A DNA stretch of 64,000 nucleotides, from positions 1,345 to 65,344 of the IMG/VR virus record IMGVR_UViG_3300028586_000002; one strand, given 5' to 3'. Shown piece by piece: positions 1,857-62,538 of the stretch (position 1 is the stretch's first letter; every line of letters begins with the position of its first letter). This DNA is from a virus (lineage: Duplodnaviria; Caudoviricetes). The translations under genes and the position numbers were made by a program. The notes beneath the pieces are model-generated. The model was given only the letters and a program-made list of their open reading frames with translations, was not told the origin of the DNA and made no database searches.

Positions 1857-3652
1857 CGAAACTGATTGCGAGCGAGATCGCCGCTTGGTTGAAAGGGAAG
1901 TTTAGCGAAGTTCAACTGGTACGCGAGCAGATGCACGGCTACCAGCAAACCGGCCTGGACTTCATGAAGAAGAATCCGTTCTCGGCACTGTTCATCGACA
2001 TGGGCCTCGGCAAGACGGTCACGTCGGCGACGCTGATCGCGGATCTGCTGGCGGATCTCGATTTCGAGGGCAAGGTGCTCATCATCGGCCCGCTCCGCGT
2101 GGCGACGCGCACCTGGCCGGACGAATTCAGGAAGTGGAAGCACCTCGCGCACCTGAACCTGTCCGTGATCCACGTCGACGATGACGATCCGCGCCTCAAG
2201 GAAGCCGCAAGGCGGGGCCGTGAAGCCGGTCGAGCGGGCTGCACAGGTCTGTTCCAGTCCGAGCGTGCGAAAGCGGCGCAGCAGGGCGCTACGCGCGCCG
2301 TGGCGGCAGAACGAGAGAAGATCCGCGTCGAGGCGACGCTGAACAGCGCTTCGGTTCACGTCATTAGCGCGGATTGGCTCGAATGGCTCGTCGCGTACTG
2401 GCACCCGCAGACTGGCCGCAAGTGGCCGTATCGCGTCGTGTTCATCGACGAGTCGAGCGGATTCAAGGATCACAATTCCGGCCGCTTCAAAGCGTTGCAA
2501 GCTGTGCGCGACACGCCGGGCGCCATCACGCGGATGCACCTGCTCACCGCGACGCCGGCAGCAGAGAGCTACATCGGCCTGTTCCCGCAGATCTATTTGT
2601 TGGATCGCGGCGCTCGTCTCGGCCGCAACATCACCGCATACCGCGACCGCTACTTCAAAGAGAACAAGTACAGCCGCAAATGGGTACTCCAAACTGACGC
2701 CGAGAAGCAAATCGTCGCGAAGATCTCGGACATTTGCCTGGTCATGAAAGAGCGCGATTACTTGCCCCGCGAAGAACCGCTGTTCGTTACCCGTTACGTC
2801 GACATGAACCAGGCGCAGCGCACGCTTTACATGACGATGGCCGAGAAGATGGTCGTCACGCTCGACGATGGCAGCAAGATCACTGCCGACACCGCTGCAT
2901 CCTTGTCTGCGAAGCTGTTGCAAATGGCGTCCGGCGTGCTGTACGAGACGCAACTGCTGCCGGGGCAAACGGACGATGACGATCATGTGAAGATCAAGAA
3001 AGTCCACAATATCCACACGCACAAGCTGGAGGAACTGGATCAGATCATCGCCGAGGCGCAGGGCAAGTCGATCCTGGTCGGCTACCACCACCGCGCATCG
3101 AAGGATCGGTTGAAGCAGCGCTACGGCGAAAAGATCACCTTTATGGACTCGGACGGCAAGTGCGTCAAGCCGTGGAACAGCGGGAAGATCCCGATCCTCG
3201 CGATGCACCCGCAGTCGGGCGGTCACGGTCTGAACTTGCAAGCCGGTGGTCACATCATCGTGTGGTACGACATTCCGTGGTCGCTCGAACTGTACCTGCA
3301 ATTCATCGGGCGCCTGGCCCGGCAAGGCCAGAAATACCGCGTGACTGTTTTCCTGCTGGTGTGCCGTGGCACGCTCGACGAAACGGTCACGGCGGCGCTG
3401 ACGGCGAAGGAGGATGCGCAGGACATTCTGTTCCGCCTGCTCAAGCGCATGCGCAAGAAACTGCGCAAGTTGCTGAAGGACCGCAAGGCTTCGGCGCCAG
3501 GCGATGCGGCGTGGGATGAGGTGGTCGAGATCCTGACCGACAGCAGCGCCGTGTCGGACGACGAGGATGACGACGAACCGCAGCACTGCCCGAACTGCGG
3601 CGACATCGGCGGTCCATGCGGTCCAGGCTCGGACTGCTACGACGAACTTTAA
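1853..3652 (+). CDS. SNF2-family superfamily II helicase
   Basis: DMGLGKT (I), FIDESS (II), LLTATP (III), GGHGLNLQ (V), QFIGRLARQGQ (VI). Confidence 0.93.
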   Translation: MTKLIASEIAAWLKGKFSEVQLVREQMHGYQQTGLDFMKKNPFSALFIDMGLGKTVTSATLIADLLADLDFEGKVLIIGPLRVATRTWPDEFRKWKHLAHLNLSVIHVDDDDPRLKEAARRGREAGRAGCTGLFQSERAKAAQQGATRAVAAEREKIRVEATLNSASVHVISADWLEWLVAYWHPQTGRKWPYRVVFIDESSGFKDHNSGRFKALQAVRDTPGAITRMHLLTATPAAESYIGLFPQIYLLDRGARLGRNITAYRDRYFKENKYSRKWVLQTDAEKQIVAKISDICLVMKERDYLPREEPLFVTRYVDMNQAQRTLYMTMAEKMVVTLDDGSKITADTAASLSAKLLQMASGVLYETQLLPGQTDDDDHVKIKKVHNIHTHKLEELDQIIAEAQGKSILVGYHHRASKDRLKQRYGEKITFMDSDGKCVKPWNSGKIPILAMHPQSGGHGLNLQAGGHIIVWYDIPWSLELYLQFIGRLARQGQKYRVTVFLLVCRGTLDETVTAALTAKEDAQDILFRLLKRMRKKLRKLLKDRKASAPGDAAWDEVVEILTDSSAVSDDEDDDEPQHCPNCGDIGGPCGPGSDCYDEL

Positions 3653-3663
3653 TGGAAATCGAA

Positions 3664-4401
3664 ATGAAAAGAATTGAATTGCTGTTCGGTGACTGTTTAG
3701 ACCGCATGCGCGAAATACCCGACGGCAGTGTTAATCTGATTTTGTGCGATCTGCCGTACGGCACTACCGCATGCAAGTGGGATAGTGTGATTCCGTTCGA
3801 GGCGATGTGGGAGCACTATTGTCGGGTGTTGAAAAAAGGATCGGCAGTTGTTCTAACAGCGGTGCAGCCTTTTACTGCTGCGCTCGTGATGAGTAATCCG
3901 CGAATGTTCAAGCATGAGTGGATATGGCATAAATCCAAAAGCGGTAGTGCGTTCACTGCCAAGTTCCGACCGCTCGCAAAGCACGAAAGCGTGCTGGTGT
4001 TTGGCGATGGTCGCGTGACGTACAACCCGCAGATGCGCCCCGGTGAACCATATCGCAGAAAGCGAGGTGCCCACGGTACAAACAACCACGCTGTCGGTCT
4101 CGGGCGTGTCGAGATTGAATCCGTGAACGACGGCGTTCGGCACCCTGAAACTGTGATTCCCTTTCAACAAAAGTGGCGTCGTCAGGATCAAGTTCACCCT
4201 ACACAGAAGCCTGTAGCCCTCATGGAGTACTTGGTGCGAACTTATTCGAACAGAGGTGAAACGGTGCTGGATAACTGCATGGGTAGCGGTACTACCGGCG
4301 TGGCATGCGTGAACACCGGGCGCAGATTTATCGGAATCGAGAATCACGAGCCCTACTTCGATGTCGCGCGCCAACGCATCGCCGAGGCCGACGAACTTTG
4401 A
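3664..4401 (+). CDS. DNA N6-adenine/N4-cytosine methyltransferase, beta class (alternative start 3652)
   Basis: CDLPYG catalytic motif precedes HPTQKP and VLDNCMGSGTT SAM-binding motif. Confidence 0.92.
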   Translation: MKRIELLFGDCLDRMREIPDGSVNLILCDLPYGTTACKWDSVIPFEAMWEHYCRVLKKGSAVVLTAVQPFTAALVMSNPRMFKHEWIWHKSKSGSAFTAKFRPLAKHESVLVFGDGRVTYNPQMRPGEPYRRKRGAHGTNNHAVGLGRVEIESVNDGVRHPETVIPFQQKWRRQDQVHPTQKPVALMEYLVRTYSNRGETVLDNCMGSGTTGVACVNTGRRFIGIENHEPYFDVARQRIAEADEL

Positions 4402-4466
4402 CAGGCCGGGGATTTTGACGATCCTCGTGTAGTATCCCGAACTATTCAATGGATAGCGCGGGAAAC

Positions 4467-4682
4467 ATGAACGAATTGCAAACACTTCTGGACTTCGAGG
4501 CCATGATTGGTCTCGATCCTCCGCAGGCATGCCAGGTCATCGGCATCGCCTATTCCACCTATGCGGCGTATCGCAATTGCAGTCGCCCGCTTCAGCAATA
4601 CCACCAGAACCACATCGAGGTCATCGGCCGATTGCCGCGCCGCGCCCTCGCGCAACTTATCAACGAGCGAATCAATGGTTAA
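4467..4682 (+). CDS. Small HTH DNA-binding protein
   Basis: QACQVIGIAYSTYAAYRN resembles an XRE-type HTH; GGAAA RBS before ATG 4467. Confidence 0.6.
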   Translation: MNELQTLLDFEAMIGLDPPQACQVIGIAYSTYAAYRNCSRPLQQYHQNHIEVIGRLPRRALAQLINERING

Positions 4683-5271
4683 ACGAACAGACCAAACCGA
4701 CGACATCACGAAAGCCATCCTTTACGACGGCGCCAACCTGTCGCAACTCACGAACCTCTTCCGCGTGGATCACCGCGTCCTCGTCGAGAAGCTGGCGAAG
4801 GGTGGCTGCAAACCGTGCGGCACGCGCAACGGCGTCGACATCTTCGCGGTGCATGAGGTGGCGCCGTACATCGTGCGACCGGCGTACGAGATCGAGGAAT
4901 ACATCAAGCGGATGCACCACAACGATCTGCCGAAGAACGTCACCAAAGAGTTTTGGGCTGGCCTGCGCTCCCGCCAGGAGTACGAGCAGCGCGAGGGCAA
5001 CTTGTGGCAAACATCGCGCGTGGTCGAGGTCATGGGCGGCGTGATGAAGCTGATTAAGATGAGCGCGCGGCTGATGGTCGATCAGGTGGATCGTCAGGCC
5101 GAACTGACCGACCGCCAGCGGCAGATCGTGAAGTCGCAGTGCGACGGCATGCTGGAAGAGGCGTACCGCACCATCGTCGAATCGTTTGCGACGCAGCCGA
5201 CGAACGTGGAAGTGATCGAGCAGTCCGAGTTGATGGTTGCAGCAGTCCGGGAGGATGACGATGAAATTTAA
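4675..5271 (+). CDS. Terminase small subunit (DUF1441-like)
   Basis: Directly upstream of terL; N-terminal HTH-like ANLSQLTNLFRVDHRVL followed by helical region. Confidence 0.82.
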   Translation: MVKRTDQTDDITKAILYDGANLSQLTNLFRVDHRVLVEKLAKGGCKPCGTRNGVDIFAVHEVAPYIVRPAYEIEEYIKRMHHNDLPKNVTKEFWAGLRSRQEYEQREGNLWQTSRVVEVMGGVMKLIKMSARLMVDQVDRQAELTDRQRQIVKSQCDGMLEEAYRTIVESFATQPTNVEVIEQSELMVAAVREDDDEI

Positions 5272-39593: not shown

Positions 39594-39893
39594 TTACAAC
39601 TCGTCGTCGAACGTGAGAGCTTCTTTCGCGACCATCGCCACCTCGGGCGAAAGCATGGCAACGAACTGCTCGGGCATGTTGGCTGGCCCGCCATGCAGCG
39701 CAGATTGAACGTGATCGTAGACGGTTTTCAGATCGGCCATGGTACGGCCAATCACGATCACTTCGACGCCGCCGATCTTCATCGCTTTCGCGCGGCCGGT
39801 GTAGGCTTTCGCACCTTTACGCGCCGAAATCACTACTTCCCTTGGCAGCTTAGAGACCGGATACACCTTGCCTTTTAACGGTGAGTAGACCAC
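39594..39893 (-). CDS. Hypothetical protein (ends FDDEL)
   Basis: ORF with AAGGA RBS in the leftward operon. Confidence 0.7.
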   Translation of the reverse strand: MVYSPLKGKVYPVSKLPREVVISARKGAKAYTGRAKAMKIGGVEVIVIGRTMADLKTVYDHVQSALHGGPANMPEQFVAMLSPEVAMVAKEALTFDDEL

Positions 39894-40009
39894 GACTTTC
39901 CTTTCTTCAGTTTGATCGCGCCGATGTACGGCCGCAGTCCCATGATCGCGTCGACCAGGATCGCGAGCACGGCCGTGGCGCAGATAGCGGTGACTGCGGC
40001 CAGGATCAC
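39875..40009 (-). CDS. Small membrane peptide (44 aa, MILAAVTAICATAVLAILVDAIMG...)
   Basis: GTGA overlap with upstream stop, GAGGA RBS, single TM; below the ORF-track cutoff. Confidence 0.5.
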   Translation of the reverse strand: MILAAVTAICATAVLAILVDAIMGLRPYIGAIKLKKGKSWSTHR

Positions 40010-40419
40010 AGTTCGTCGTCCTCTTCCAGCTTCTTACGCTGGAACTCCTGCCGACGCGCCAGTTCAGCGGCCACCTGTGCAGGTCGTGCGACAGCCTCGG
40101 CTTCGCATACAGCGAGCGGCTTACCGAACGTGTAGTGGACGTGCTGGCCGTGCGGGTGCGAATGGATCACACTGTCCGGCACGAGAGGTCCGACGTAGGT
40201 GTACAGCCACTCATCGCCGTCCAGGCCGTCGACGTACTCGACCGTCAGCTTGCCCTTTTCGACGGCCACGATGCCGTCGACGCCGATCACCGGCACGCCG
40301 CGTCGCGCGAGCGTCTTGATGATGTGCGTGCCGATCAGGAAGCCTTGATTCTCGAACGGCCTCTTCGCGAACTCGTCTCGCGTGAACGTCACACGTACCG
40401 TTTTGTCTTGCGTGGTCAT
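40006..40419 (-). CDS. Hypothetical protein (ends EDDEL)
   Basis: ORF with AAGGA RBS, coupled to neighbours. Confidence 0.72.
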   Translation of the reverse strand: MTTQDKTVRVTFTRDEFAKRPFENQGFLIGTHIIKTLARRGVPVIGVDGIVAVEKGKLTVEYVDGLDGDEWLYTYVGPLVPDSVIHSHPHGQHVHYTFGKPLAVCEAEAVARPAQVAAELARRQEFQRKKLEEDDEL

Positions 40420-41412: not shown

Positions 41413-41763
41413 TTACAGATCTTGATCTAGTCCTAGTTCTTCCTCCAGTTTAGCGATGGTGCTGCGCATCCGCTTGATCGTCTTGCGTGCTGCGGCCAAT
41501 TCGTCTTCGGCGTTTTGTCGCGCTTCCTGGCTGTCGTCGGCCAGTGTCTTGAATGCCGCGACATGATCCCATGCGATTTTCTCATGCCGGCGCAGGCGGT
41601 CGAGTTCCTGTTGTGCCGGATGCTCAACGGGCAATTCTCCGGTGAGTTCGATGATGCTACCGCCAAGCCGGTCGACTTGAGCACGAAGCCGCCCGTTCTC
41701 GATCTGGATCTTCACGTACTCGCTTGCCGGATAGCTGTCGGGCCAGCCGCCATCACAGGTCAT
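41413..41763 (-). CDS. Hypothetical coiled-coil protein (ends LDQDL)
   Basis: GGAAGGGG RBS; heptad-like C-terminal half. Confidence 0.68.
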   Translation of the reverse strand: MTCDGGWPDSYPASEYVKIQIENGRLRAQVDRLGGSIIELTGELPVEHPAQQELDRLRRHEKIAWDHVAAFKTLADDSQEARQNAEDELAAARKTIKRMRSTIAKLEEELGLDQDL

Positions 41764-41992
41764 CGTATTCCCCTTCCTCGCGCCAGATCCGCACGCCTGG
41801 TTGAAAGTAGATCTCGTCTTCCTCGACCTGCGCGATGCGGATACCGACGCCGGCACGGACCACCGGGCGCCGCAGGAATTCCACGTCCGCGCGCTTCACG
41901 TCCGGGATGAAGAACGACTGGCCCGGCAGCATGCGGATCACCTTCTCGACGAGAACGCGGACCTGCTGTTCTGCTGTTTTATCGCGCGGCAT
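41753..41992 (-). CDS. Small putative DNA-binding protein (ends EYDDL)
   Basis: MLPGQSFFIP...GVRIWR resembles small phage DNA-binding proteins. Confidence 0.65.
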   Translation of the reverse strand: MPRDKTAEQQVRVLVEKVIRMLPGQSFFIPDVKRADVEFLRRPVVRAGVGIRIAQVEEDEIYFQPGVRIWREEGEYDDL

Positions 41993-42011
41993 GAATGCTT
42001 TCCCGAGGTAG

Positions 42012-43001
42012 TTAGATTTCGTCTTCGTCTTCGGCCGGCGCATCCTGGTTTTCCAAGTAGACCGACATCACTGCGTCGACGATGCGGCCGATCTCCTTGG
42101 CGAACAACCAGTATGTCGCATGCAGATCAGCCACGTCGATGCCGGTGCCGGCGATATTCACGTCCGACAGCTTGACACCTTTGAAAACGAACTTGTCGGT
42201 CACGGTGAACGTGGACAGCGTGACGCCTTCGAGGATGAGTGCGAGTGCCAGTTCGGTGACGGCGTATGCGCCATCGTTCACGATAGTCTTGAACTCGTCG
42301 TGATTCAGATCGCGGTCCTTGATGCGAACAGCGCGCTTATCGTCACCCTTGAACACTGCGGACTTGCCGGGATGCAGAATTTCGTCTTCGTCGCCGTAGT
42401 AGGCGAGGCCGTCGCGAACGATCTGCGTGAGCATGGACGACGGCGACACGGCGGTCATCATATCCGACCACTCGAACTTGATCGGCGTCTTGCGTGTCTC
42501 GCACAGCCGCGTCAGGTGGATCATGATCTTCTCGGCCATGGTCGCGCTGGACGTGCAGAGATACAGGCGGTTCTTCGTGACGATCACCGGAATGGTCTTC
42601 GGCACGATGAACGCTTTCGGCAGCAGGGCGATTTCCACATCGTCCCGCAATTGCGCGAACTCTTTCTTGTTGAGGTTCCGGCCTTCCTTCTCGACCAGTG
42701 CCTCATAGCGCTTCTTCAGTTCCTCGTCGCGCACCGACGCCGGCAGCTTGCGCTCGGCGAAGCGGTACATGAACAGGTAGCCGGCGCCGTCGAGATCGTG
42801 GACGATAGCGTCTTCGCCGGGCATGACATTGGTGATGCCGAGGGTCGACCATTCGCTGTTGCCGGGATCGCGGGCGATGAAGTTCTGCACTGCGTCGCGC
42901 GCGGCGTCGCTACTCTTCACGGCACGCGCGCACCACTTGAACAGCGCGTCGTTCACGGTGAGCGGGATGAACGCCTTGATGCTTTTGATTGCTTTTGCCA
43001 T
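42012..43001 (-). CDS. rdgC: Recombination-associated protein RdgC-like
   Basis: ERKLPASVRDEEL...EKEGRNLNKKE.AQLRDDVEIALLPKAF motif; vertical codon pattern; start at 43001. Confidence 0.85.
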   Translation of the reverse strand: MAKAIKSIKAFIPLTVNDALFKWCARAVKSSDAARDAVQNFIARDPGNSEWSTLGITNVMPGEDAIVHDLDGAGYLFMYRFAERKLPASVRDEELKKRYEALVEKEGRNLNKKEFAQLRDDVEIALLPKAFIVPKTIPVIVTKNRLYLCTSSATMAEKIMIHLTRLCETRKTPIKFEWSDMMTAVSPSSMLTQIVRDGLAYYGDEDEILHPGKSAVFKGDDKRAVRIKDRDLNHDEFKTIVNDGAYAVTELALALILEGVTLSTFTVTDKFVFKGVKLSDVNIAGTGIDVADLHATYWLFAKEIGRIVDAVMSVYLENQDAPAEDEDEI

Positions 43002-43243
43002 TACAGTTCGTCCTCTTCTTCGAGTTCGGCGGCGATCTGGCGCTCCGTCGAATCGGGCTGGTTTTTCGAGTGGTACGGGGTGACGTGATCTTGCGCCAGG
43101 TAGCGCTTCTCCGCGACTTCCGGCTTCTCGGTCATGTAGACTTTGCCACTGGTCGGCGATTCGATCAGCCACGCTACAGGTGGCCGGCCGTGCCGGTCGT
43201 GCGGCATGAGAATGTCCGGGTCAGCGTTTCGTTTCATGTTCAT
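43001..43243 (-). CDS. Hypothetical protein (ends EEDEL)
   Basis: GGAG RBS; TAATG coupling to rdgC. Confidence 0.68.
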   Translation of the reverse strand: MNMKRNADPDILMPHDRHGRPPVAWLIESPTSGKVYMTEKPEVAEKRYLAQDHVTPYHSKNQPDSTERQIAAELEEEDEL

Positions 43244-49702: not shown

Positions 49703-49912
49703 TCACAGTTCGTCGTCCTCCAGCAGTAGTTGCGTGTCACCGTGTTTCGTGCAGTTCGTGCGGACCAGTGACAGCTTGAGGTGGTCGAGCAGCTTGAACA
49801 TCACCTCGGTCAGTTCCTCGTGCGTGAGCGTGTTGAGGTACTGGTTCAGCGTCTCGCGAAAGGGCGGCGGGTCTTCACGGAATGCGGGGTGCCGGTTGCG
49901 ATTGCGGCTCAT
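49703..49912 (-). CDS. Hypothetical protein (ends EDDEL)
   Basis: ATGA overlap; GAAGG RBS. Confidence 0.65.
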   Translation of the reverse strand: MSRNRNRHPAFREDPPPFRETLNQYLNTLTHEELTEVMFKLLDHLKLSLVRTNCTKHGDTQLLLEDDEL

Positions 49913-52749: not shown

Positions 52750-52788
52750 CTCTTTTCAGACAATGCGCACGGCACGACTGCGGAATCA

Positions 52789-52818
52789 TTGACAAGAAAA
52801 AACCTTGTCTGTTAATAT
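52789..52818 (+). promoter_or_regulatory. Sigma70 promoter TTGACA-18-TAATAT with operator-like motif at 52792-52808
   Basis: ACAAG-AAAAAAC-CTTGT spans the -35 box and spacer. Confidence 0.82.
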
Positions 52819-52871
52819 GCAATCTCTCACCCGAGAACCCTTTACAAACAATCCTTAAAACGGAGCGCACC

Positions 52872-53762
52872 ATGCAAAAATTCTTCAAACTTTCCGCTGA
52901 ACGTATGCGCATCATTTGCGGCGTGGCTGAATCGCGTATCTTCCGCGTCACTGGCATCGAAACCAACATGATTGGCGGCGCTGGTTTTGACGCTTTCGTC
53001 ACGCTGGATTCCGGCGATGGCTGGTACAAGGGCGCATACATGGGGAAACTCGAAATGTTCGCAGCGCGTGGCGAATTTGTGACCGAAGCGGAATACCTGG
53101 CGCAAGATGCCGCGCCGGTAGTCGTGCCTGCGTGCGCACCTGGGGAACCATTGGCCGTGATGGCACTGGCCGGGCGCATCAATCGCGAGTGCCTTGATTG
53201 GCTGGAGATTCCCGACACTGATGGCGAACTGATGTTGGTCGCAATGCCGCATGGCGTCGTCACCATGTTCACGGATATGAACGGATACGCCACGCCGGAA
53301 GAATGCTACAGCGCCGCGCCGCACGCGCACCGAATCGTTACGCCTAGCTGGAATGCGTACGTTGTCGACCTGACCAAGCGCGCCGCGCCGGAATGCGTGG
53401 CTTTCCTGGCCGATGTCCCGCAAGAATCGAACGCGGCAATCATGGCGCGCGCCGTCGCTTTCGTGCGTGATATTCGCCTGACTGCTGAATACCTGGCCGC
53501 GCATGATGACGAACCGGCCGCGCTGGACGACGGCATAACGGGCAATGAGCAGGTGCGAGCATTGGCACATGAGCATGCCCGCGCCGATGCGGCCCGCAAA
53601 CTGTCCGGCGTGCCGTCGCCAACGGAAAAAGGCATGCGCGCCCATGCGGCCGGAAAAAGCGCATCGCTCGATAACCCTTATGCGTTTCCGTCGCCATTCT
53701 GGTATCAGTGGGAACAGGGTTTTGCGCTCGCACGTCGTCGCGCCGAACAGGTGAAAGCATGA
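52872..53762 (+). CDS. Early hypothetical protein (296 aa, probably multi-domain)
   Basis: ACGGAG RBS; first gene after the promoter. Confidence 0.7.
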   Translation: MQKFFKLSAERMRIICGVAESRIFRVTGIETNMIGGAGFDAFVTLDSGDGWYKGAYMGKLEMFAARGEFVTEAEYLAQDAAPVVVPACAPGEPLAVMALAGRINRECLDWLEIPDTDGELMLVAMPHGVVTMFTDMNGYATPEECYSAAPHAHRIVTPSWNAYVVDLTKRAAPECVAFLADVPQESNAAIMARAVAFVRDIRLTAEYLAAHDDEPAALDDGITGNEQVRALAHEHARADAARKLSGVPSPTEKGMRAHAAGKSASLDNPYAFPSPFWYQWEQGFALARRRAEQVKA

Positions 53763-54139
53763 GCGCCCGCGTCAAACCGCCTGAAGGCGTGGCCGATGGG
53801 CATGGCGGCACGAAATACACATGCCGCACGAAAGATGAAGCATTGGCCGTGATGCGCCTGGCGAAGTCTCGCGCACACTTTCGCGTGCATGCGTGCATGG
53901 ATGCCGAATTGCCGGATACGCCTGACAAGTATTTGCCGCGCGCCTTCAGTGGTTCGATTCATGTCTCACGCTGTGCGGCTGAAATGTTCGTCTCCGATGT
54001 CTTCCACGAAGCACTTGTCGCGCGTGGCTGTGCGCTTACGATCCGCTTATCGGCGGGACATCGGCGCAAAAAGTGGGACGACGCGAAGCGCGATTTTGTC
54101 GAATATGGCGTGCCGTCAATGTACGTCTACATCGGCTGA
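53759..54139 (+). CDS. Early hypothetical protein (126 aa)
   Basis: ATGA overlap with upstream gene. Confidence 0.65.
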   Translation: MSARVKPPEGVADGHGGTKYTCRTKDEALAVMRLAKSRAHFRVHACMDAELPDTPDKYLPRAFSGSIHVSRCAAEMFVSDVFHEALVARGCALTIRLSAGHRRKKWDDAKRDFVEYGVPSMYVYIG

Positions 54140-54161
54140 ACGAAATATATCTGCAAACGCA

Positions 54162-54239
54162 TTGACAAGATAAAACCTTGTTTGTTAAGATGCGTATTCA
54201 GTAGGGCGAAGTTTGCCCGCTGACACTGTTTTACCTTGT
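54162..54239 (+). promoter_or_regulatory. Sigma70 promoter TTGACA-18-TAAGAT with two operator-like motifs (54165-54181, 54223-54239)
   Basis: Near copy of the 52789 promoter; second site TGACACTGTTTTACCTTGTCA lies downstream of the predicted start. Confidence 0.82.
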
Positions 54240-54262
54240 CATCACTTTTGCATAGGCCACAC

Positions 54263-54370
54263 ATGCCGCATGAACAGAAATTCGACGGACTGATTTACCG
54301 CCTGGCCGATTACCTGCCGCACGCTGGCGCGGCTGTGCTGGCCTTGCTTGTCATTTTTCACCCTTTTTAA
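54263..54370 (+). CDS. Small peptide with C-terminal hydrophobic segment (35 aa)
   Basis: First ATG after the promoter; below the ORF-track cutoff. Confidence 0.42.
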   Translation: MPHEQKFDGLIYRLADYLPHAGAAVLALLVIFHPF

Positions 54371-54382
54371 ACGGAATCTCAA

Positions 54383-54877
54383 ATGTCCAAAATCATCAAT
54401 CAATCAATCGACGCGATGCTGTTAAACGTCGGTCTGTCGGTATCCGTCATCGGCAAGGGTGAACAGGTTCGCGACAACGATTGGAAGTGCGACGCCTGGC
54501 GTTTCACGATCACGAATGCACAGCGCAAGAGCGAATCATTCGACTACTACACCGGCATCGGTCATCGCAAGTGCAATCTTGCGCCAGCACTTCGCCCGAA
54601 GTTTGTAAATCCGAATTGCATTGCGGCTGAAGAATTTAACAAGCGTCATGTTCTGCCGGTAGCGCCGCACGTCGCGGGCCTGTTGCATTCGTTGGTTCTG
54701 GATGGTTCAGCGCTGGAGCAGTGCTTTATTGATTGGTGCGCTGACTTCGGTTATGACGCCGACAGCATGAAGGCATTGACCCTGTATAACGCATGCTGCG
54801 AAAACGCGCGCCGTCTCCAATTGCTTATTGGTCGAGAACTGTTCGCGAAAATCAGCGAAGCGCTTCAGGACTACTAA
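54383..54877 (+). CDS. Early conserved-looking hypothetical protein (164 aa)
   Basis: FDYYTGIGH and F.DWCADFGYDADS.KA..LY.AC motif-like segments. Confidence 0.75.
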   Translation: MSKIINQSIDAMLLNVGLSVSVIGKGEQVRDNDWKCDAWRFTITNAQRKSESFDYYTGIGHRKCNLAPALRPKFVNPNCIAAEEFNKRHVLPVAPHVAGLLHSLVLDGSALEQCFIDWCADFGYDADSMKALTLYNACCENARRLQLLIGRELFAKISEALQDY

Positions 54878-54913
54878 TTCACCCTCTCACGCAATCCAAA
54901 AAGGAGTTTCACC

Positions 54914-55579
54914 ATGTCTTTCGCAACTAAAAATGCATCGCTCTTAAACCTGTTCGCGCTGTTCGGCAAGCCGGTCCCGACTGAAGATAGTGACATGGGC
55001 CGCGCCGTGTCGATCCTGCAAACCATCGCTGACGAACACTCGCACAGCTTCAGTGTGGATGCTGACGAACTGGCCGAAGAAATGCTCGACAACCTGAAGG
55101 GCTGGAGCGTGTTTAACGGCAATGCGGCATGCGCCCCTTACGCTGAATCGCATGATGGCAAACGTGCTAACGGTGAAACGCGTTTTATCGTAATCGGTGC
55201 GGCCTATGCCCTGGCCGGTCTGACGCATGACACGCTTTATACGCCGGACGAATTTGACACGCTCGACGAACTGGTCACGCTGATGGGCGGCCATGAATCC
55301 GATGATTTTAATTTTGAGTTCGACGGCAACGAATACCGCCTGATTAAATCCGATGAAGATGTCATCTGGCCTATCTACCGTGACGCCATCCAGAACACCG
55401 TGGAAGACTGCTATTCAGACGTGCTGAAGCTGGACAAAATCCCCGCTTTTATCGCTGTTTCGATTGATTGGGAACAGACCGCTAAGAATGCGTACGCCGA
55501 TGGTTACGGGCATCAATTCAGCGGCTATGACGGTAGCGAATACGAAGCGGGCGGATACTACATCTTCCGCACGAACTAA
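54914..55579 (+). CDS. Acidic ArdA-like antirestriction / DNA-mimic candidate
   Basis: Very D/E-rich; C-terminal IDWEQTAKN...GYGHQFSGYDG.E....YYIFRTN resembles the ArdA-like tail; AAGGAG RBS. Confidence 0.58.
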   Translation: MSFATKNASLLNLFALFGKPVPTEDSDMGRAVSILQTIADEHSHSFSVDADELAEEMLDNLKGWSVFNGNAACAPYAESHDGKRANGETRFIVIGAAYALAGLTHDTLYTPDEFDTLDELVTLMGGHESDDFNFEFDGNEYRLIKSDEDVIWPIYRDAIQNTVEDCYSDVLKLDKIPAFIAVSIDWEQTAKNAYADGYGHQFSGYDGSEYEAGGYYIFRTN

Positions 55580-55619
55580 ACCGAAGCAATCAAACAATCC
55601 CGCAAACGGAGCAATCGAC

Positions 55620-56309
55620 ATGACGAAACTTAATATCAACGAATCGCACTATCTGAACTTGCGCGCCAGTGCGCCCGCCCGCCTGGCCGTGTTGCGCAAT
55701 GCCGCCGCATACACCAATGCGCACGACGTGAAACTCCCGCCTAGCATGCGTTTCGCTACCTGGCGCGAGGCACGCCGCACGACATTCCGCACGCTGGACA
55801 CCGGCCTGGCACAAGGGTTCAATAGTTGCGGATCGTATCGCGTGCCGGTCTGGTACTCGCACAGCAGCGCCGAACATTTCCGCAATGAGCGCAAGGCGCA
55901 CAACATCGTGAGCATGAACCATACGGGCTGGTACGCTGACATTGACGGATTGGAACTGATAACCGGCATTGTTGCGGGCCTGCCGCATGGCCGATTTATC
56001 GCCGGCTATGAATGTTCGGAAAACGAGGAACGCGTTTATTTCAGTCACATCTACGATGACGAAAACGACGCGGCGCGCGCCGCTGACGAACATGCACGCA
56101 TTCAAGCGGACAAAGAACGCGAGCAGGATCAGCGTTATAACGATGCGTGCAACCTGGCGCACGATGTCGAAATGTTGAAAACCGATGTCGCCGAACTGTT
56201 CCCCATGCGCCACCATGGTCGCGCACGTCGCGAACTGGCGCAAACAATCGAGACGATGCGCACGAAGCGCGCCACGCTCGCAAGCGAATACGCCGACATC
56301 GAACTGTAA
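55620..56309 (+). CDS. Early hypothetical protein (229 aa)
   Basis: ACGGAG RBS; HTGWYAD...GIVA.LPHGRFIAGY motif-like segment; C-terminal coiled coil. Confidence 0.72.
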   Translation: MTKLNINESHYLNLRASAPARLAVLRNAAAYTNAHDVKLPPSMRFATWREARRTTFRTLDTGLAQGFNSCGSYRVPVWYSHSSAEHFRNERKAHNIVSMNHTGWYADIDGLELITGIVAGLPHGRFIAGYECSENEERVYFSHIYDDENDAARAADEHARIQADKEREQDQRYNDACNLAHDVEMLKTDVAELFPMRHHGRARRELAQTIETMRTKRATLASEYADIEL

Positions 56310-56324
56310 AAGGAAAACGACATC

Positions 56325-56651
56325 ATGAAAAAACTGACATTTGATGAAGCAATGGACCGCATCAATGATGAGCGCCCGTTGTCGTCTTCGGAAGTGCTGG
56401 CAAGCGCATTGTCGCGCCAATTGTGGGTAGCGGAATGGCATGTTCCGGGTTGTATGTCTGAATCGCGGTCCTACTGCGAAACGAAGCGCGATGCTGTAGA
56501 TGCGGCGCTGTCGTTCGCCAGTGGCGAAGATGCCGCGCCGCGCGGCATGAAAACGGCATTGGTGAAATATGGCCGGTTCGATTCCGAAAGCGAAATGTTC
56601 GGTACTTGCATTAACACGGTTCAGCGTATGACGCTGGCCGACATCATCTAA
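56325..56651 (+). CDS. Early hypothetical protein (108 aa)
   Basis: AAGGA RBS. Confidence 0.7.
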   Translation: MKKLTFDEAMDRINDERPLSSSEVLASALSRQLWVAEWHVPGCMSESRSYCETKRDAVDAALSFASGEDAAPRGMKTALVKYGRFDSESEMFGTCINTVQRMTLADII

Positions 56652-56662
56652 AGGCGCGCATC

Positions 56663-57409
56663 ATGTCCCACACTCTTATCACTCGCTGCGATCAGTTCAA
56701 CCTGGCATTGTCGCAAGGCTCGCATGTCTTCCCTGGCGGCTATCCGCTGTTCTTCGTGATGGCTGACGGTGAAAGCCTGGCTTTCGATGTGGCCGGTTTG
56801 CCTGATGTCGCGCCACTGATCCGCGACGCCATCATCGCAGGCCCGAACACCGGAAACGACGATTGGCGCGTAGTGGCCGTGTCCGTGAACTATGAAGACA
56901 ACGAACTGACGTGCGTGCATACCGGCCGCAAGATCGAATGCGCCTATCCGCCCGATGATGCGCCAGCACTCGACACATTTACGCGTCACTATCTCATCGC
57001 GGCATTGTGGAGTAGTCGCGTCATGGGCGGCGCTGATGATGGCGAACCGCTCGACGATTATTTTGGCATTGACGACATTGACGAACAGACGAAAGCGCAA
57101 GCAATCGAGGATTGCGCCGACTTCCAAAAATCGCAGCGTGCTTTGCTGGTTCAGGCGTACGCCTTTTACGATGAAAACGGCAATTCGGCGCATGCTGACG
57201 CGGGATCACCTGAAGCGTGCGCAGGCCACGATTTTTGGCTTACTCGCAACGGTCACGGTACAGGGTTTTGGGATAGGGGTATGCCTGGCACGCTTGGCCG
57301 TGAATTGAGCGATGCGGCAAAAACGCATGGCGGCGTGGACATTGACCAATGGAACATGATTGACCCGACGGCAGGCGGCGCAATCGTCAACGAAGAAGAG
57401 GAAAACTAA
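56663..57409 (+). CDS. Early two-domain acidic hypothetical protein (248 aa)
   Basis: FPGGYPLFF N-terminal module and GHDFWLTRNGHGTGFWDRG C-terminal module. Confidence 0.75.
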   Translation: MSHTLITRCDQFNLALSQGSHVFPGGYPLFFVMADGESLAFDVAGLPDVAPLIRDAIIAGPNTGNDDWRVVAVSVNYEDNELTCVHTGRKIECAYPPDDAPALDTFTRHYLIAALWSSRVMGGADDGEPLDDYFGIDDIDEQTKAQAIEDCADFQKSQRALLVQAYAFYDENGNSAHADAGSPEACAGHDFWLTRNGHGTGFWDRGMPGTLGRELSDAAKTHGGVDIDQWNMIDPTAGGAIVNEEEEN

Positions 57410-57411
57410 CC

Positions 57412-57654
57412 ATGACGTTATCGGAAATTGTGCGCATCGGCGCAGCACGCATGACGCATGTGACCGTCGATATTGACTCGGCTTACGATACGGTCACTAT
57501 CTCGACACCTGGCGAAGATGACATTTTCATGCAAGGCGATGATGCGCGCGCCTTCATTGATGATGTTGACGCGCTTTACAATCGAACCGGCGATATGACG
57601 AAAGACGATTGCGCCGCATGTGTGGCTGAACCCTTTACAACCCTTTGGAGCTAA
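57412..57654 (+). CDS. Early small acidic protein (80 aa)
   Basis: GAGGA RBS; D/E-rich. Confidence 0.68.
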   Translation: MTLSEIVRIGAARMTHVTVDIDSAYDTVTISTPGEDDIFMQGDDARAFIDDVDALYNRTGDMTKDDCAACVAEPFTTLWS

Positions 57655-57659
57655 TCGCC

Positions 57660-57914
57660 ATGTGCGCAAACAATCTTCGCCACCTGCGAACCATAGAAGG
57701 CGCAAAACGTCGCGCCACGATCCGCGCCATGTTGGCAAAATCCGATGCGCTGGTGTTCGGCAACGATCCGCATACACTTTCGTTCTCGCAACGATCCGCA
57801 TTGCAAGATATGGCGCGTGCCGTGTCCTGGCGCAAGAGCATCACATCATGCTTGTCATTGGGCGCGGCTTTCTATGTCTACCTGTCGCGCGATGCGGCCA
57901 TGGTGCAATCATGA
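57660..57914 (+). CDS. Early small basic protein (84 aa)
   Basis: GGAG RBS before ATG 57660. Confidence 0.62.
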   Translation: MCANNLRHLRTIEGAKRRATIRAMLAKSDALVFGNDPHTLSFSQRSALQDMARAVSWRKSITSCLSLGAAFYVYLSRDAAMVQS

Positions 57915-58135
57915 TGTGGTTTATTCTCTTGCGCATGGTGGCCACGTTGTTACTCGCGCTTATCGGCGGCGCGGCGTGCCTGATCCTGGTGGGCATCGGC
58001 CAGAAAGGCGACGCGCTCCAGCTTGCCGTAATGGTTGCCATCGGCGTGTGGTTCATTCAGCCTAACAACGAACAGCGTGCAGACTTCGCAGCATTCCAGA
58101 AAGCGCGCGAACCATGGCAACCACCTAACCACTAA
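57911..58135 (+). CDS. Early small membrane protein (74 aa)
   Basis: ATGA overlap; two hydrophobic segments. Confidence 0.62.
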   Translation: MMWFILLRMVATLLLALIGGAACLILVGIGQKGDALQLAVMVAIGVWFIQPNNEQRADFAAFQKAREPWQPPNH

Positions 58136-58156
58136 CCCGCATCACTCCCCCTACAG

Positions 58157-58177
58157 GCCCGCTTATGCGGGCTTTTT
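58157..58177 (+). terminator. Terminator closing the early cassette
   Basis: GCCCGC-TTAT-GCGGGC-TTTTT. Confidence 0.85.
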
Positions 58178-58579
58178 GCATTTCCGCCTTACCTTCTCCC
58201 CTCTCGCATGCACGTACGTGCATATCCGCTCGCGCTCGCACCTGTACGCGTGAGACTTCGTTTTCCCTCATTTCATCGTGGCCGCATAGCTGGCCGGTAG
58301 CGGCCTGGCCGCACTCCCCTATATCCGCATATCGGCTTGCCTCTGTTCGTGGCCTGGCGGGCTGATGCGTGGCCGGATAGCGGCATATCGGCATAGCTGG
58401 ATAGCTTTATATCGTGGATAGCAGCATATCGGGGGTTGCCTGGCGATGCGCATGTGGTTTGCGTGGCCGCTATGGGGTCGCCACGCTGCGAACGGGGGTC
58501 GATTGGTATCCGCCTAGTCTGATGCCGGCCAATCGGCGTGGCGGTCCTGTATTCGCTTCGGTGCTTATCGGGGGTCAAT

Positions 58580-58623
58580 GGGTCCCTCCCCAGGGGGTAG
58601 CGGCCTCCGGGGGTCCGTAGAGC
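58580..58623 (+). other. Candidate cos site: 12-nt cosN GGTCCGTAGAGC (58612-58623) with cosQ-like GGGTCCC (58580-58586)
   Basis: 10/12 match to the Chi overhang as I recall it (GGTGCGCAGAGC); located in the non-coding gap below primase; CCGGG/CTCGG flanking symmetry; lambda-type terL. Confidence 0.7.
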
Positions 58624-58670
58624 CTCGGTTTGCGAGATTTTCTGAAAACGGCCATAGCACCAACTCGAAA

Positions 58671-58687
58671 ACACTGTTTTACCTTGT
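58671..58687. promoter_or_regulatory. Operator-like motif adjacent to cos
   Basis: ACACTGTTTTACCTTGT, identical to 54223-54239. Confidence 0.65.
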
Positions 58688-58796
58688 CAGCCGATTTACC
58701 AAGTTCCCCATAGTCCCTAAAATCGGCGTTTTCACTTTATATCTATCCTCTTTACTTTCTTTTTTTTCTCGCTACACGTAATCAGAATAGGGTAAA

Positions 58797-58866
58797 TAGA
58801 GAATATAGATAACTAAAAGGGGTGTAAAAGGTCGAAAAGATGCAATTCTGATCTCTATGTTCTCTA
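58797..58866. repeat. 13-bp inverted repeat in an AT-rich tract
   Basis: TAGAGAATATAGA (58797-58809) versus TCTATGTTCTCTA (58854-58866), 12/13 complementary. Confidence 0.7.
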
Positions 58867-58917
58867 AAAACGCAAGTTTGAAGTCGTTCAGTCTTCTGTG
58901 TAAAAAGTTGAAGGCGT

Positions 58918-58940
58918 AAAAAACCCGGCTCGTGGCCGGG
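58918..58940 (-). terminator. Terminator of the primase operon
   Basis: CCCGGC-CACGA-GCCGGG-TTTTTT on the minus strand. Confidence 0.85.
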
Positions 58941-58959
58941 CATGAGGGGTGGTCAATGG

Positions 58960-61518
58960 TCAGAGTTCGTCGTCATCGTCGATTTTCTGCGTTCGATCTT
59001 CGACGTATTTGCGAACTTTCACGGTGTCGACGTGAATTCCGCCATCCTGGTCGCGAAACTGGAACATTTCAGGCTCTCGCGTGTAGTAGGTGCGCAGTTC
59101 ACCTTTAACGCGGATCTTACCCATGCTCTCGAAGTGATACCTGGACATCATTGCACCGATGGCCTTGTTCCCCGGAAGATCCATGCCGTGATCCATCATG
59201 ACTTCGATCATTTTCGATGAGTCGATCAGATCGTTCGAGATCAGCGGATGCTCACCCTCGTCGATCAGGTCGTTCAGGTTTTGGATGAACTCGGGCTGCG
59301 CCTGGCGGATCATGTAGGTTTTCGCAGCCGTGGCCGGCGCATTGCCTTTCGGCTTGAACGTGTCCAACTGCTCCCACTCCAGCAACCACTTCCGCAGTGC
59401 CGGCGCCGACGTGGCGACTGTCGAATACAGGCGTTCGTAGTATTCAGGATCTTCAGCGAGGAACGCGTCGAGTTTATCCTTTCGCTGCCACCGGCTGAAC
59501 AGCACGCAATACCGGCGACCGTCGTCATCGAGCGGCAAGGCGTCGCGGAAGTTCGAGAACATCAGGTATGAAGTGGTGTTTTTTGCCTGGTATGGCGGCT
59601 TACCCTTCGGATGCACCTCGATCTCGTCGTTCGTGATGAACGGCTTGATCCGGTTCAGCAACTCGTACTTGTTCGTCGCTTTGATGAGCCGCACTTCTTC
59701 GATGCAGGTGATGCACTGGCCGACAACCCAATCGGTGAAGGGTGACTCCAGAATGTGAGCGTTCAGCATTTGAACGTTCGACACGCCCATGACCGAGCGC
59801 ATCAGCATTGCGAAGAAAGACTTGCCGTCGCCTTCCACGCCTTGCAACAGGATCGACCAGTTCGCGTGCTGGCCTGGATTCTGGACGACCCATGACAACC
59901 AGTCCACCAGCAGCCGGCGCTCGACCGGATCTTCGAGCAGGTGGGCGACGTGTTTTTTCACGCGCTTGATCGCAACCTTGTCGCGGGGCAGCAGTTCATC
60001 CGGCAGTTCCGGGATCTCGTGCTCGGGGTAGGTGTTGGCGAAAATGCCGTCCTTCCGGTGGAAGATTTTGTCGGCGCCCGGCTCATACCGGCGACCGTTG
60101 ACGGTGATGATCTTGAAAACGTTCAGCGCGAGCGCCGACGCGGTACTGGTCGGGTTCGTTTTGCCGTCCAGCAGATCCTTTTTCGTCATCGCCTTGCGGT
60201 CGAACATCGCATTGAAGCCTTGCTGCGTGGCCGAGAACTTGCGTTCCGTGTCATAGAAGCGGTCATCGGACGTGTCGTACACAAAATCCGATGCCCATCC
60301 AGGCGTTTTTTCACCCTTCGACGGCGTGTATGCGATGGCCTTTTTCACCTCGGACAGCGGTGTTTTGCTGCTGTTGATGATGTCGAGCCGGTCTTTCGCC
60401 AGCGTTGCCATGGCCGAACGAGCCAGGCTGTCGATTTCCGCCTCGCGCGTCGCGTCTCGCGCTTTTTCCCACGCGGCCAGATCCTTCGCGCTGCCGAACA
60501 TATCGCGCAACTTCAGGGTCAGTGCGATGGTCGACTCGGCCGCAGCCTCTTTCGACAATTTCAGGATGAAGCGAGCCGTAAGCGGCGCACGCTTTTTACC
60601 TTCGATGGCGAAGTCGGCCCATCGACGTTCGAGCGCATCGCAGTCGTAGTTTTCGGCGGTCTCGGACCACTCTTTCCACAAGTCCAGGCCGATGTCTTCG
60701 CCGTCGAACTGGTGGTGTAGTGCCATGCCGACTTGGAACCAGATGTCGTAATCGTCCGGGTTCGGGACCATCATCAGGCGATTGCGCAGTTCGTCCTCGC
60801 CGATGTCGATAGGATTGGCGTCTTCGATGAACGGATTGTCCAGGTCGATCTCGCCCACGGCGCCGGTACGCCGGCTTTTCACGATTTTCCAGTCGCTCTC
60901 TTCGGCCGCGCGCGCCTCGAACCAGTCGATGAACGCCTGGCACTGTTCCTGGCTGATGTCGATCAGCTTGTTCGCATTGATGGTGAGCGGGCCACCTTTT
61001 TTTACGGTTTTTTCGTCTTCGATTTTCTCGTCCGGCCAGGTGTACGGCAAGCCGGTGTCCGGGTGCGTGTGATAGGCCACGAACTGCTGGCCGTCGCCGA
61101 GAATTTCGATCTGGTGAAGGTCTCCCCATTCATCTTGATATTTGTTGGACCGCATTTTGCGGAAAGGTGCCTCTGTGCGATACAGCAGCAGGCGTTTCGG
61201 TGCGCGGCCGATCCGCAGTGGTGCCTCGCCGAAAATCTCGCGCGCTTTTGCCTCGGCTTCGAGCGCGATGTCTTCGTTGAGAACGTCGATGTCGACCGCT
61301 GGCGTGTGCCTGGTCAGGATGCCGACGCCGGATTGGCGATGTCCTGACGTGATCCACTCGTCGAGTTGCGGTTTAGTCGATCGCGTCTTGCTCCAGCCGT
61401 CGAAGCCAGGCGCTTTCTTACCAACTGCGATTGGGATGATCGAGTAACCATTGTCGATCAGCCGGCTACCGAGGTAAGCGAGCGGGCCGCTGTTCTTCGG
61501 TGTGTATTCGTCTGTCAT
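58960..61518 (-). CDS. Primase-polymerase/PriCT-2 fused to a DUF5906/SF3-type helicase domain (852 aa)
   Basis: Prim-Pol (AVDIDV, RIGRAPK, QFVAYHTHP), PriCT-2 (YDIWFQVGMALH), Walker A QGVEGDGKS, Walker B CIEEV. Confidence 0.92.
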   Translation of the reverse strand: MTDEYTPKNSGPLAYLGSRLIDNGYSIIPIAVGKKAPGFDGWSKTRSTKPQLDEWITSGHRQSGVGILTRHTPAVDIDVLNEDIALEAEAKAREIFGEAPLRIGRAPKRLLLYRTEAPFRKMRSNKYQDEWGDLHQIEILGDGQQFVAYHTHPDTGLPYTWPDEKIEDEKTVKKGGPLTINANKLIDISQEQCQAFIDWFEARAAEESDWKIVKSRRTGAVGEIDLDNPFIEDANPIDIGEDELRNRLMMVPNPDDYDIWFQVGMALHHQFDGEDIGLDLWKEWSETAENYDCDALERRWADFAIEGKKRAPLTARFILKLSKEAAAESTIALTLKLRDMFGSAKDLAAWEKARDATREAEIDSLARSAMATLAKDRLDIINSSKTPLSEVKKAIAYTPSKGEKTPGWASDFVYDTSDDRFYDTERKFSATQQGFNAMFDRKAMTKKDLLDGKTNPTSTASALALNVFKIITVNGRRYEPGADKIFHRKDGIFANTYPEHEIPELPDELLPRDKVAIKRVKKHVAHLLEDPVERRLLVDWLSWVVQNPGQHANWSILLQGVEGDGKSFFAMLMRSVMGVSNVQMLNAHILESPFTDWVVGQCITCIEEVRLIKATNKYELLNRIKPFITNDEIEVHPKGKPPYQAKNTTSYLMFSNFRDALPLDDDGRRYCVLFSRWQRKDKLDAFLAEDPEYYERLYSTVATSAPALRKWLLEWEQLDTFKPKGNAPATAAKTYMIRQAQPEFIQNLNDLIDEGEHPLISNDLIDSSKMIEVMMDHGMDLPGNKAIGAMMSRYHFESMGKIRVKGELRTYYTREPEMFQFRDQDGGIHVDTVKVRKYVEDRTQKIDDDDEL

Positions 61519-61820: not shown

Positions 61821-61860
61821 TCTGTCTAGTCCTCCGAAATAAGTTAAGAATTCGGAATAA

Positions 61861-61905
61861 ATTATAGTACAAACGCTTGACGACCCGCAATGTATCTGCG
61901 AAGAT
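61861..61905. promoter_or_regulatory. Overlapping divergent promoters: minus TTGCGG-18-TATAAT (61890-61861), plus TTGACG-17-GAAGAT (61877-61905)
   Basis: Hexamer matches between the divergent replication operons. Confidence 0.55.
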
Positions 61906-61942
61906 GTCTTCCATGCACTGATCGACGACAAAGGAAGATGCG

Positions 61943-62128
61943 GTGGCAGCGGAATACGACAACACGAGTTTCGGGATTCGACAGCGACGCGAGGACATTG
62001 CGGCACTGACGGCTATACGTCAGGCGATGATGCGCCGAACGACGTACACGACGGACCCGGAAAAGTTGGACGCTCTGCACCGCCTCATCGCCGCCGCCGA
62101 TCAAGTGCTGTCCACCCTCACAACTTAA
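61943..62128 (+). CDS. Small hypothetical protein (61 aa)
   Basis: AAGGAAG RBS, GTG start, TAATG coupling. Confidence 0.55.
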   Translation: MAAEYDNTSFGIRQRREDIAALTAIRQAMMRRTTYTTDPEKLDALHRLIAAADQVLSTLTT

Positions 62129-62538
62129 TGGAGCAACAAATGATTGAAACCCTGATCCGCGCACTGATCGCATCCCTCGACGCAAACACCGCAGCCCACG
62201 GCGGCACGGTGCCAGCCGACTCGACCGGCGCGGCCGATGCAGCAGCAACCACCGCTGCAACCACCGCAACCACGACCACCAAAGGCGCTGGCAAAACGAC
62301 CGGCAAGACCACCACCAAAGCAACCACGCCGAAAGGTCCGACCCGCGAAGAAGTCGTCGCGCTGCTGACCAAGATCAAGGATGAAAACGGTGCTTCGGAA
62401 GCGAAGCCACTGGTCGCCCTGGCCGGCGTCGTGAAGATGGCCGAGATCCCTGACGAAAAGCTGAAGCTGGTCTTCGACGCTGCGACCGAATACCTGGCGC
62501 CGAAAGCTGACGACGGCGAAGACGACGGCGATCTGTAA
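62128..62538 (+). CDS. Hypothetical replication-module protein with Thr/Ala linker and small helical C-terminal domain (ends DDGDL)
   Basis: Strong codon bias; position before DUF2800 as in Chi-like phages. Confidence 0.8.
   Translation: MEQQMIETLIRALIASLDANTAAHGGTVPADSTGAADAAATTAATTATTTTKGAGKTTGKTTTKATTPKGPTREEVVALLTKIKDENGASEAKPLVALAGVVKMAEIPDEKLKLVFDAATEYLAPKADDGEDDGDL

Follow-up and report, generated by a model that had tools for sequence, protein, structure and literature searches.

Why should proteins of replication, recombination, methylation and DNA packaging in one phage all end in the same few residues? The question is raised by a 64,000-nucleotide stretch of DNA (hereafter the window), bases 1345-65344 of the 65,344-bp virus record IMGVR_UViG_3300028586_000002 (G+C 61%), in which a first-pass annotation had noticed the C-terminal end [DE][DE][LI]-stop, here called the tip, on at least 11 non-virion proteins. 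The answer proposed here is that the tips may be docking elements that share a reader or readers with the tail of the phage's own binding protein for single-stranded DNA (SSB), which carries the same end. The large terminase (TerL) of the window shares 58% identity with its counterparts in Redjac, Enc34 and Chi-type phages, which by sequence comparison places the phage as a distant member of the Chi-like (Casjensviridae-type) siphophages; nearer relatives were found as IMG/VR metagenomic contigs only (TerL identity 89, 89, 77, 77 and 69%).

Genes were called with our own simple codon-usage gene caller, which gave 81 complete proteins in the window, and the same caller was used on 34 lambda-like loci (788 genes) that served as the control for enrichment, whereas tip counts in Chi and Enc34 were taken from the annotated coding sequences (CDS) of their records. 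The record of the window is referred to as G000, the five nearer relatives available in full as G001-G005, and the more distant genomes as G006-G010, among them Proteus phage Saba (G006) and Providencia phage PibeRecoleta (G007).

Occurrence of the tip

All 11 ends listed in the first-pass annotation are present in the sequence at their stops, as are the near matches LDQDL (41413), DDGDL (62538), ADIEL (56309) and the ...DDDEDD of the polymerase, and the family assignments hold for the SNF2 helicase, the N6/N4 methyltransferase, the small terminase (TerS), the DUF7443 protein at the lambda FI position, RdgC and the Prim-Pol/PriCT-2/DUF5906 primase. Since [DE][DE][LI] occupies 0.28% of internal positions, 0.23 such ends would be expected among the 81 proteins, and the 11 found exceed this composition-based null by far (binomial p 8e-16). 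The tripeptide DEL stands at the C-terminus seven times and internally six times in the window proteins, and none of the 788 control genes ends in [DE][DE][LI].

The strict carriers number 12 once SSB is included, and two relaxed ones (LDQDL and DDGDL) have orthologs with the full motif, amounting to about one in seven proteins of the phage (~15%). The consensus can be written [DE][DE]-D-E-L-COOH, a stretch of acidic residues closed by a hydrophobic one at the very end. Besides six small proteins without assigned function, the carriers have roles in replication, recombination, methylation and DNA packaging. The restriction to non-virion proteins claimed for the tip was largely borne out in the block from TerL to endolysin, where the FI-position protein alone bears it (1/29 genes vs 11/53 elsewhere; Fisher p 0.048).

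The SSB of the phage carries the tip

The SSB gene, of the gp2.5/Enc34 type (PF10991), was missed in the first-pass annotation. It is cut at the end of the window, where the last 127 nt of the record repeat its beginning. The whole gene lies at G000:C1:11-658 and its protein ends ...GDDGDDDDDL, a tip outside the window, so that the tail common to the carriers is also the tip of the SSB. This SSB is present in more than 250 phage records, and the 13 orthologs that were compared all end in the variant of the tip that is used by their genome (its dialect), including that of Enc34, DEDEV (annotated CDS and primer sequence in PMC5686142). An AlphaFold2 model of the full-length SSB has a confident OB core, and its tail (residues 182-214) is disordered with pLDDT below 50. 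A comparison of linkers found the tip on a disordered linker in SSB and in the FI-like protein, and on only 4-5 added residues in the methyltransferase and the helicase. In the Enc34 SSB crystal the tail sits in the DNA groove of a neighbouring molecule, and the protein without its tail binds double-stranded DNA just as well as single-stranded DNA (PMC5686142).

Conservation and lineage dialects

Each of G001-G005 has 10-13 tips vs 0.2 expected, in the same 12-13 ortholog families, and the residues preceding the tip vary among these orthologs; the conservation in relatives that the first-pass annotation had proposed to check is thus present. In some more distant phages the terminal residue differs. 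Nine annotated proteins of Chi and eight of Enc34 end in [DE][DE]V vs 0.1 expected, from the families of the primase, gp044/ORF3, a DUF2800 nuclease, SSB, TerS, the FI-position protein and RdgC, and Providencia phage G007 likewise has DEV tips, whereas DEL is the dialect of the window clade and of Proteus phage Saba. In a quick TerL tree, Chi, Enc34 and G007 form one V clade nested among L genomes (Saba, contigs L026 and L018, then the window clade), and all 7 of the 7 families bearing the tip in both groups switched from L to V on one branch. Against a background of 4% switched among 944 other columns conserved to an equal degree in the L-tip genomes, seven such switches would have a probability of ~2e-10 if families were independent.

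Further dialects were met in other lineages. BcepNazgul has GL ends in six families (annotated proteins), the podovirus BPP-1, which shares the replication module and not the virion genes, has five proteins, SSB included, that end LV or LI, contigs L043 and L040 have DGFDD on SSB, TerS, portal and FI-position protein, and contig L036 has an E-W (EW) end on four proteins. These comparisons indicate that the tip is uniform within a genome and changes in step across families between lineages. The portal of L043:10250-11950 and L040:7945-9633, ending ...NDGFDD, is a virion protein with a tip, unlike the situation in the window.

Residues rather than nucleotides are kept

In the 71 tips of G000-G005 the last codon is CTG 29, CTT 15, CTC 12, TTG 5, CTA 3, TTA 1, ATC 4 and ATT 2 times, so that all six leucine and two isoleucine codons occur, as do the two codons of Asp and the two of Glu; the codon variety noted earlier extends to the relatives. 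The residues are position-specific, with D61/E10 at -3, E54/D17 at -2 and L65/I6 at -1, and orthologs conserve these residues rather than a GAGGA string; conservation of the GAGGA nucleotides without the residues was what had been named as fatal to a protein-level tag. A close downstream start follows 7/10 tagged vs 41/70 untagged genes, with no excess overlap for the tagged ones, a long gap or a terminator comes after five of the tips, and the GAA preference of the window genome is not seen in G005. Varied codons, position-specific residues and the lack of excess coupling together argue that selection acts on the tip residues, i.e. at the protein level. Nor is a footprint of Shine-Dalgarno sequences or translational coupling apparent, tips being found at operon ends too and residues being kept where codons vary.

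CTT is over-used as the final leucine codon in G000-G005 (15/65 tips vs 5% of leucine codons genome-wide), an excess that could reflect stop-codon context or shared descent of the tip-coding ends.

Docking tips and their possible reader

These observations could be explained if the tips are docking tips read by a shared phage-encoded site or sites, a reading that we hold with about as much belief as doubt. The tip would then be a handle to the phage-encoded site or sites that also read the SSB tail, so that proteins of replication, recombination, methylation and packaging could assemble on replicating and concatemeric DNA or be exchanged there. New genes can acquire the tip through insertion immediately ahead of one already present, the route taken by the methyltransferase. 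Candidate readers are, in order, the basic DNA groove of SSB, TerL, the polymerase, and a set of several DNA-binding grooves together. In favour of the SSB groove is the crystal position of the Enc34 tail, within the groove of a neighbour. TerL owes its appeal to the tips on TerS, on the FI-like protein and, in one lineage, on the portal, and to the case of T4, whose TerL binds both its portal protein gp20 and its SSB gp32 (PMC9026906). The polymerase is doubtful as reader because L-tip genomes have either PolA or a PolB-like enzyme, the latter with an acidic tail of its own, and it may be a client rather than a reader.

Proteus and Providencia are closely related hosts. The tip of the Proteus phage nonetheless ends in L and that of the Providencia phage in V, and the phages of Providencia, Hafnia and Salmonella agree with each other, on which grounds a host factor as reader is disfavoured and a phage reader favoured. 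Of the interpretation in the first-pass annotation, one short linear motif under protein-level selection on non-virion proteins is supported; the common hub is conjectural and fares less well for two of its named candidates, the host factor and the basic H1-like protein. The H1-like protein is not among the genes common to all tip-bearing genomes and is an unlikely reader.

A scan for co-variation with the tip found that, among columns conserved in the L genomes, 1/211 in TerL, 2/100 in the helicase and 2/195 in the portal are switched in the V genomes; the share is higher in the primase, RdgC and the major capsid protein, for which the number of available genomes was smaller. The two SSB residues that follow the dialect best, R126 and L155 (L124:11-655), are at least 95% conserved in 21 L-tip SSBs and changed in the V, LV, EW and GLG lineages, L155 standing four residues before W159, which aligns with the base-stacking Trp150 of Enc34. 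They are a weak lead and non-discriminating, because helicase columns follow the clades likewise.

Several observations weigh against a common docking function. The helicase has 7/130 columns with the same clade-following pattern as the two SSB residues, and the AlphaFold2 monomer of SSB leaves its own tail disordered rather than docked in cis, a result that says little by itself. Uniformity within genomes is imperfect, since I stands beside L in the window genome (EDEDEI of RdgC and DDDEI of TerS), I beside V in Chi and V beside L in G009. Only one concerted switch, L to V, has been placed on a tree, and the other dialects come from single genomes or contigs, partly with our own gene calls. 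An apparent M dialect, with M as the final residue of SSB in L033 and L038, was rejected, as the FI-like proteins there keep L. Some Nazgul tips are non-acidic, so that electrostatic DNA mimicry is not the whole story, and the methyltransferase, whose tail is explained by the geometry of its insertion (see below), is removed as evidence for selection.

A more specific form of the docking reading, in which the free C-terminal D-E-L of about 15 proteins is an address label for one reader and one factory on replicating DNA, and the dialects are co-evolved pairs of reader and label, seems to us rather doubtful. The reader might here be the SSB DNA groove on SSB-coated DNA or in SSB condensates, or TerL, and the dialects (DEL, DEV, GL, LV, DGFDD, EW) would stop co-infecting relatives from borrowing or jamming the machinery.

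Other explanations

Each tail might instead act in cis as a DNA mimic that folds onto the DNA-binding surface of its own protein and tunes binding, without a common reader. A tail that folds back in this manner has been demonstrated in T7 gp2.5 and proposed in Enc34 ORF6, most carriers bind DNA by family assignment, and both the dsDNA binding of the tailless Enc34 SSB and the position of its tail in the crystal (PMC5686142) would fit such a role. Independent contacts, however, give no reason for the joint L to V switch in 7/7 families or for the GL, LV and DGFDD dialects, and the FI-like protein and several carriers of 55-100 amino acids are without a recognised DNA-binding domain. The non-acidic tips of Nazgul and the undocked tail of the SSB monomer count against cis mimicry as well, which we regard as unlikely.

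C-terminal residues are determinants of degrons, and the tip is largely restricted to non-virion proteins, so that a host or phage protease or chaperone could read or avoid it, timing the turnover of early proteins or protecting them. Degrons that end in D-E-L or D-E-V are not known to us, the tip is also borne by the SSB, whose tail acts as a docking element in T7 and E. coli, and the difference between Proteus and Providencia phages, together with the agreement among phages of more distant enterobacterial hosts, fits a fast-evolving phage partner better than conserved host proteases; a stability tag of this kind is quite improbable.

Least credible, and in our judgement close to dismissal, is a cause at the nucleotide level (the ribosome-binding site or start of the next gene, the context of termination, or a linker for recombination where genes adjoin): it could draw on the next start within 10 nt in 7/10 tagged genes, on some tips with GAGGA 9 nt upstream of the next start or with a GTGA or TAATG overlap, on GACGAACT in 6/7 DEL tips of the window genome, on the CTT excess, and on the 11-nt repeat around the methyltransferase, by which tip-coding ends can serve as recombination junctions, but coupling is equally common in untagged genes (41/70), tips also stand at operon ends and ahead of long gaps, synonymous codons vary with D/E and L/I swaps that preserve the residue class, and the DEV, GL, LV and DGFDD lineages use unrelated codons.

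Insertion of the methyltransferase ahead of a resident tip

The first-pass annotation had counted the methyltransferase as an apparently recently acquired gene that was tagged in its own right, with 261 amino acids. The protein has 249 amino acids, its start ATG at 3652 overlapping the helicase stop as TAATG, and its tip comes from the 3' end of the helicase gene. On either side of the insert lies a copy of the 11-nt direct repeat CGACGAACTTT (3640-3650 and 4389-4399), a sequence found nowhere else on that strand of the window. In relatives without the methyltransferase the helicase ends ...GACGAACTT TGA CAAGCCGGGGATTTT; the string GACGAACTT TGA CAAGCCGGGGATTTT now follows the methyltransferase, and the helicase retains a second copy, ...GACGAACTT TAA TG. 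The sequence comparison thus indicates that the methyltransferase took over the last codons, stop and downstream flank of the helicase gene on inserting. An independent acquisition of the tip is rejected since the tail matches the helicase 3' end, despite the lack of such an end in 117/120 of the nearest homologs (55-72% identical); the contig of a tip-bearing exception, P0099, has the same gene order.

Insertion just ahead of a resident tip is shown by this case as one route by which tips spread to new genes. The arrangement recurs in the related contig L125, although the methyltransferase there is no more than 59% identical, so that the insertion may be old or cassettes may have been exchanged via the flanks. 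At the same helicase-TerS junction, G004:C1:62273-62635 (L096) is a lineage-specific gene whose product of 120 amino acids ends EAEDDEL, and this junction could be a hot spot for insertions at which incoming genes gain the tip.

Relation to known systems

A close parallel is T7, where the tails of gp4, the helicase-primase, bind patches on gp5 (PMC8835902) and that of gp2.5, the SSB, engages gp5 as well as the helicase (PMC4124056). The window phage has an SSB of the same fold class (PF10991, Enc34/gp2.5 type), its tip is likewise an acidic run with one terminal hydrophobic residue and a free carboxylate, and SSB and primase share their ending, as do those of T7 (...DGDF and ...DTDF), whose tails dock on the polymerase. 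In contrast to the two carriers of T7 there are 12-15 here, including TerS, the FI-position head-assembly protein, RdgC, the methyltransferase and small proteins, the last position holds an aliphatic residue (L, I or V) instead of Phe, and the polymerase belongs to a different family and has an acidic tail itself; in the window phage the tips are putative docking elements.

In T4, the C-terminal ends of gp43, gp33 and gp55 are interchangeable and bind the gp45 clamp (PMC2988020), so that ends on functionally different proteins are all read by one hub, and the T4 terminase is linked to SSB and portal. The tips of different carriers in the window phage and its relatives are near-identical within a genome and change together, which lends only indirect support to a possible interchangeability. 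The window phage differs from T4 in that no clamp gene was found, in its motif sequence and in its many more carriers; the whole 65-kb record gave no match to the beta-clamp (PF00712) or PCNA (PF00705) models, and none to the T4 gp45 model (PF02916), whose control gave none either.

The tip of bacterial SSB recruits many partners, and in eukaryotes the basic cleft of RPA70N binds acidic-hydrophobic motifs of many repair and replication proteins. RPA70N is, by analogy only, an SSB OB fold that serves as hub for short acidic motifs on many clients, the same logic as in the idea of the SSB groove as reader, though the RPA motifs are internal amphipathic helices and not C-terminal tips. The E. coli SSB (...DDDIPF) resembles the window SSB in its OB domain, disordered linker and acidic tip with a hydrophobic docking end (PMC5686142), and differs in that one tip carrier meets many pocket partners where here there are many carriers, and in its Ile-Pro-Phe, which is absent here.

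The first-pass annotation knew of no description of a proteome-wide tag. In the literature searched, the coverage of which is incomplete, neither a proteome-wide tip nor lineage dialects were found described, so that the claim stands for the breadth, whereas the principle has been published for two proteins of T7 and three of T4. Relative to that literature, the novelty would lie in the lineage dialects and in the breadth, with 12-15 carriers among which are proteins of packaging and modification.

If the tips are docking labels, about 15% of the phage proteome, including six small proteins without known function, would belong to one interaction network that physically connects replication with recombination and packaging, and this in a large family of phages to which the model phage Chi belongs, and the methyltransferase would be a captured gene wired into such a network by a single recombination step. 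The dialects would then be natural orthogonal pairs of tag and reader, and the reader could be sought in Chi by a T7-style selection for suppressors of tail mutants. Even without a single reader, the tip could serve as an annotation mark for DNA-transaction proteins in Chi-like phages.

Carrier genes and other features of the window

The coordinates of the carriers and of related genes are given in Table 1.

Table 1. Genes of the window with the tip, a relaxed or variant tip, or an acidic end (window coordinates).
Feature	Position	Strand	C-terminal end and remarks
Divergent B-family-like polymerase, C-terminal 524 aa	2..1576	+	...DKDDDEDD, acidic without hydrophobic end
SNF2-family helicase	1853..3652	+	...GSDCYDEL; tip codons GAC GAA CTT at 3641-3649
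N6/N4 DNA methyltransferase, 249 aa	3652..4401	+	...RIAEADEL
Small terminase TerS	4675..5271	+	...REDDDEI; start uncertain, open reading frame opens at 4507
DUF7443 protein, lambda-FI position, 115 aa	12328..12675	+	...APADEEL
99-aa protein, no assigned function	39594..39893	-	...TFDDEL; last in operon, terminator-like hairpin region after
137-aa protein, no assigned function	40006..40419	-	...LEEDDEL
116-aa coiled-coil-like protein	41413..41763	-	...LGLDQDL (relaxed); orthologs IDQEL or IDDEL
96-aa protein (phrog_7200)	41753..42043	-	...EGEYDDL
RdgC-family protein, 329 aa	42012..43001	-	...AEDEDEI
80-aa protein, no assigned function	43001..43243	-	...LEEEDEL
69-aa protein, no assigned function	49703..49912	-	...LLEDDEL; without coupled downstream gene
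229-aa protein	55620..56309	+	...EYADIEL; orthologs YADIEL, YSDVEL, YSDIEV
Primase (Prim-Pol, PriCT-2, DUF5906), 852 aa	58960..61518	-	...IDDDDEL; without coupled downstream gene
132-aa protein (Chi gp044 / Enc34 ORF3 family)	62140..62538	+	...GEDDGDL (relaxed)
SSB, gp2.5/Enc34 type (PF10991), first 39 codons	63884..64000	+	gene cut by record end

Helicases of relatives end DEDEL, DDDEL, EDDEL and DDDEL, and those of Chi and Enc34 are acidic without a hydrophobic end. The TerS gene, whose end overlaps the TerL start at 5261, has orthologs ending DDDEL, DEDEL, DDDEL, EDDEL and DDDEL, with DDDEV in Chi, Enc34 and G007, and the RdgC orthologs end DEL or DDL, with DEV in the same three phages. The FI-like protein consists of a conserved N-terminal domain of ~45 residues, a low-complexity linker of variable length and the tip, the last being present in 13/13 genomes compared; residues 46-115 are disordered in its AlphaFold2 model, with about 65 disordered residues between domain and tip. 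Members of the gp044/ORF3 family were found in 12/13 genomes, with an acidic-aliphatic end in every one. The 229-residue protein has a possible variant tip, and its membership among the carriers is unsure.

The polymerase (window 2-1576 and L124:725-2917) has weak family-B matches only, to PF20286 and PF00136, both below cut-offs. In the window clade and G010 it takes the place of the PolA, ending ...FYRKD, that is present in Chi, Enc34, Saba, Nazgul and BPP-1, and some polymerases of relatives do have a hydrophobic end (EGEDL, DDGEDI, KDQDEI).

The copy of the record start at the record end is exact, window 63874-64000 corresponding to record bases 1-127; in IMG/VR the record is assigned to the class with direct terminal repeats, but the 127-nt copy may instead be a circular-assembly overlap. 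The G+C content dips to 0.55-0.56 at window 52001-60000 vs ~0.61 elsewhere, in a region with short + strand genes that had earlier been read as a possible early or anti-defence cassette.

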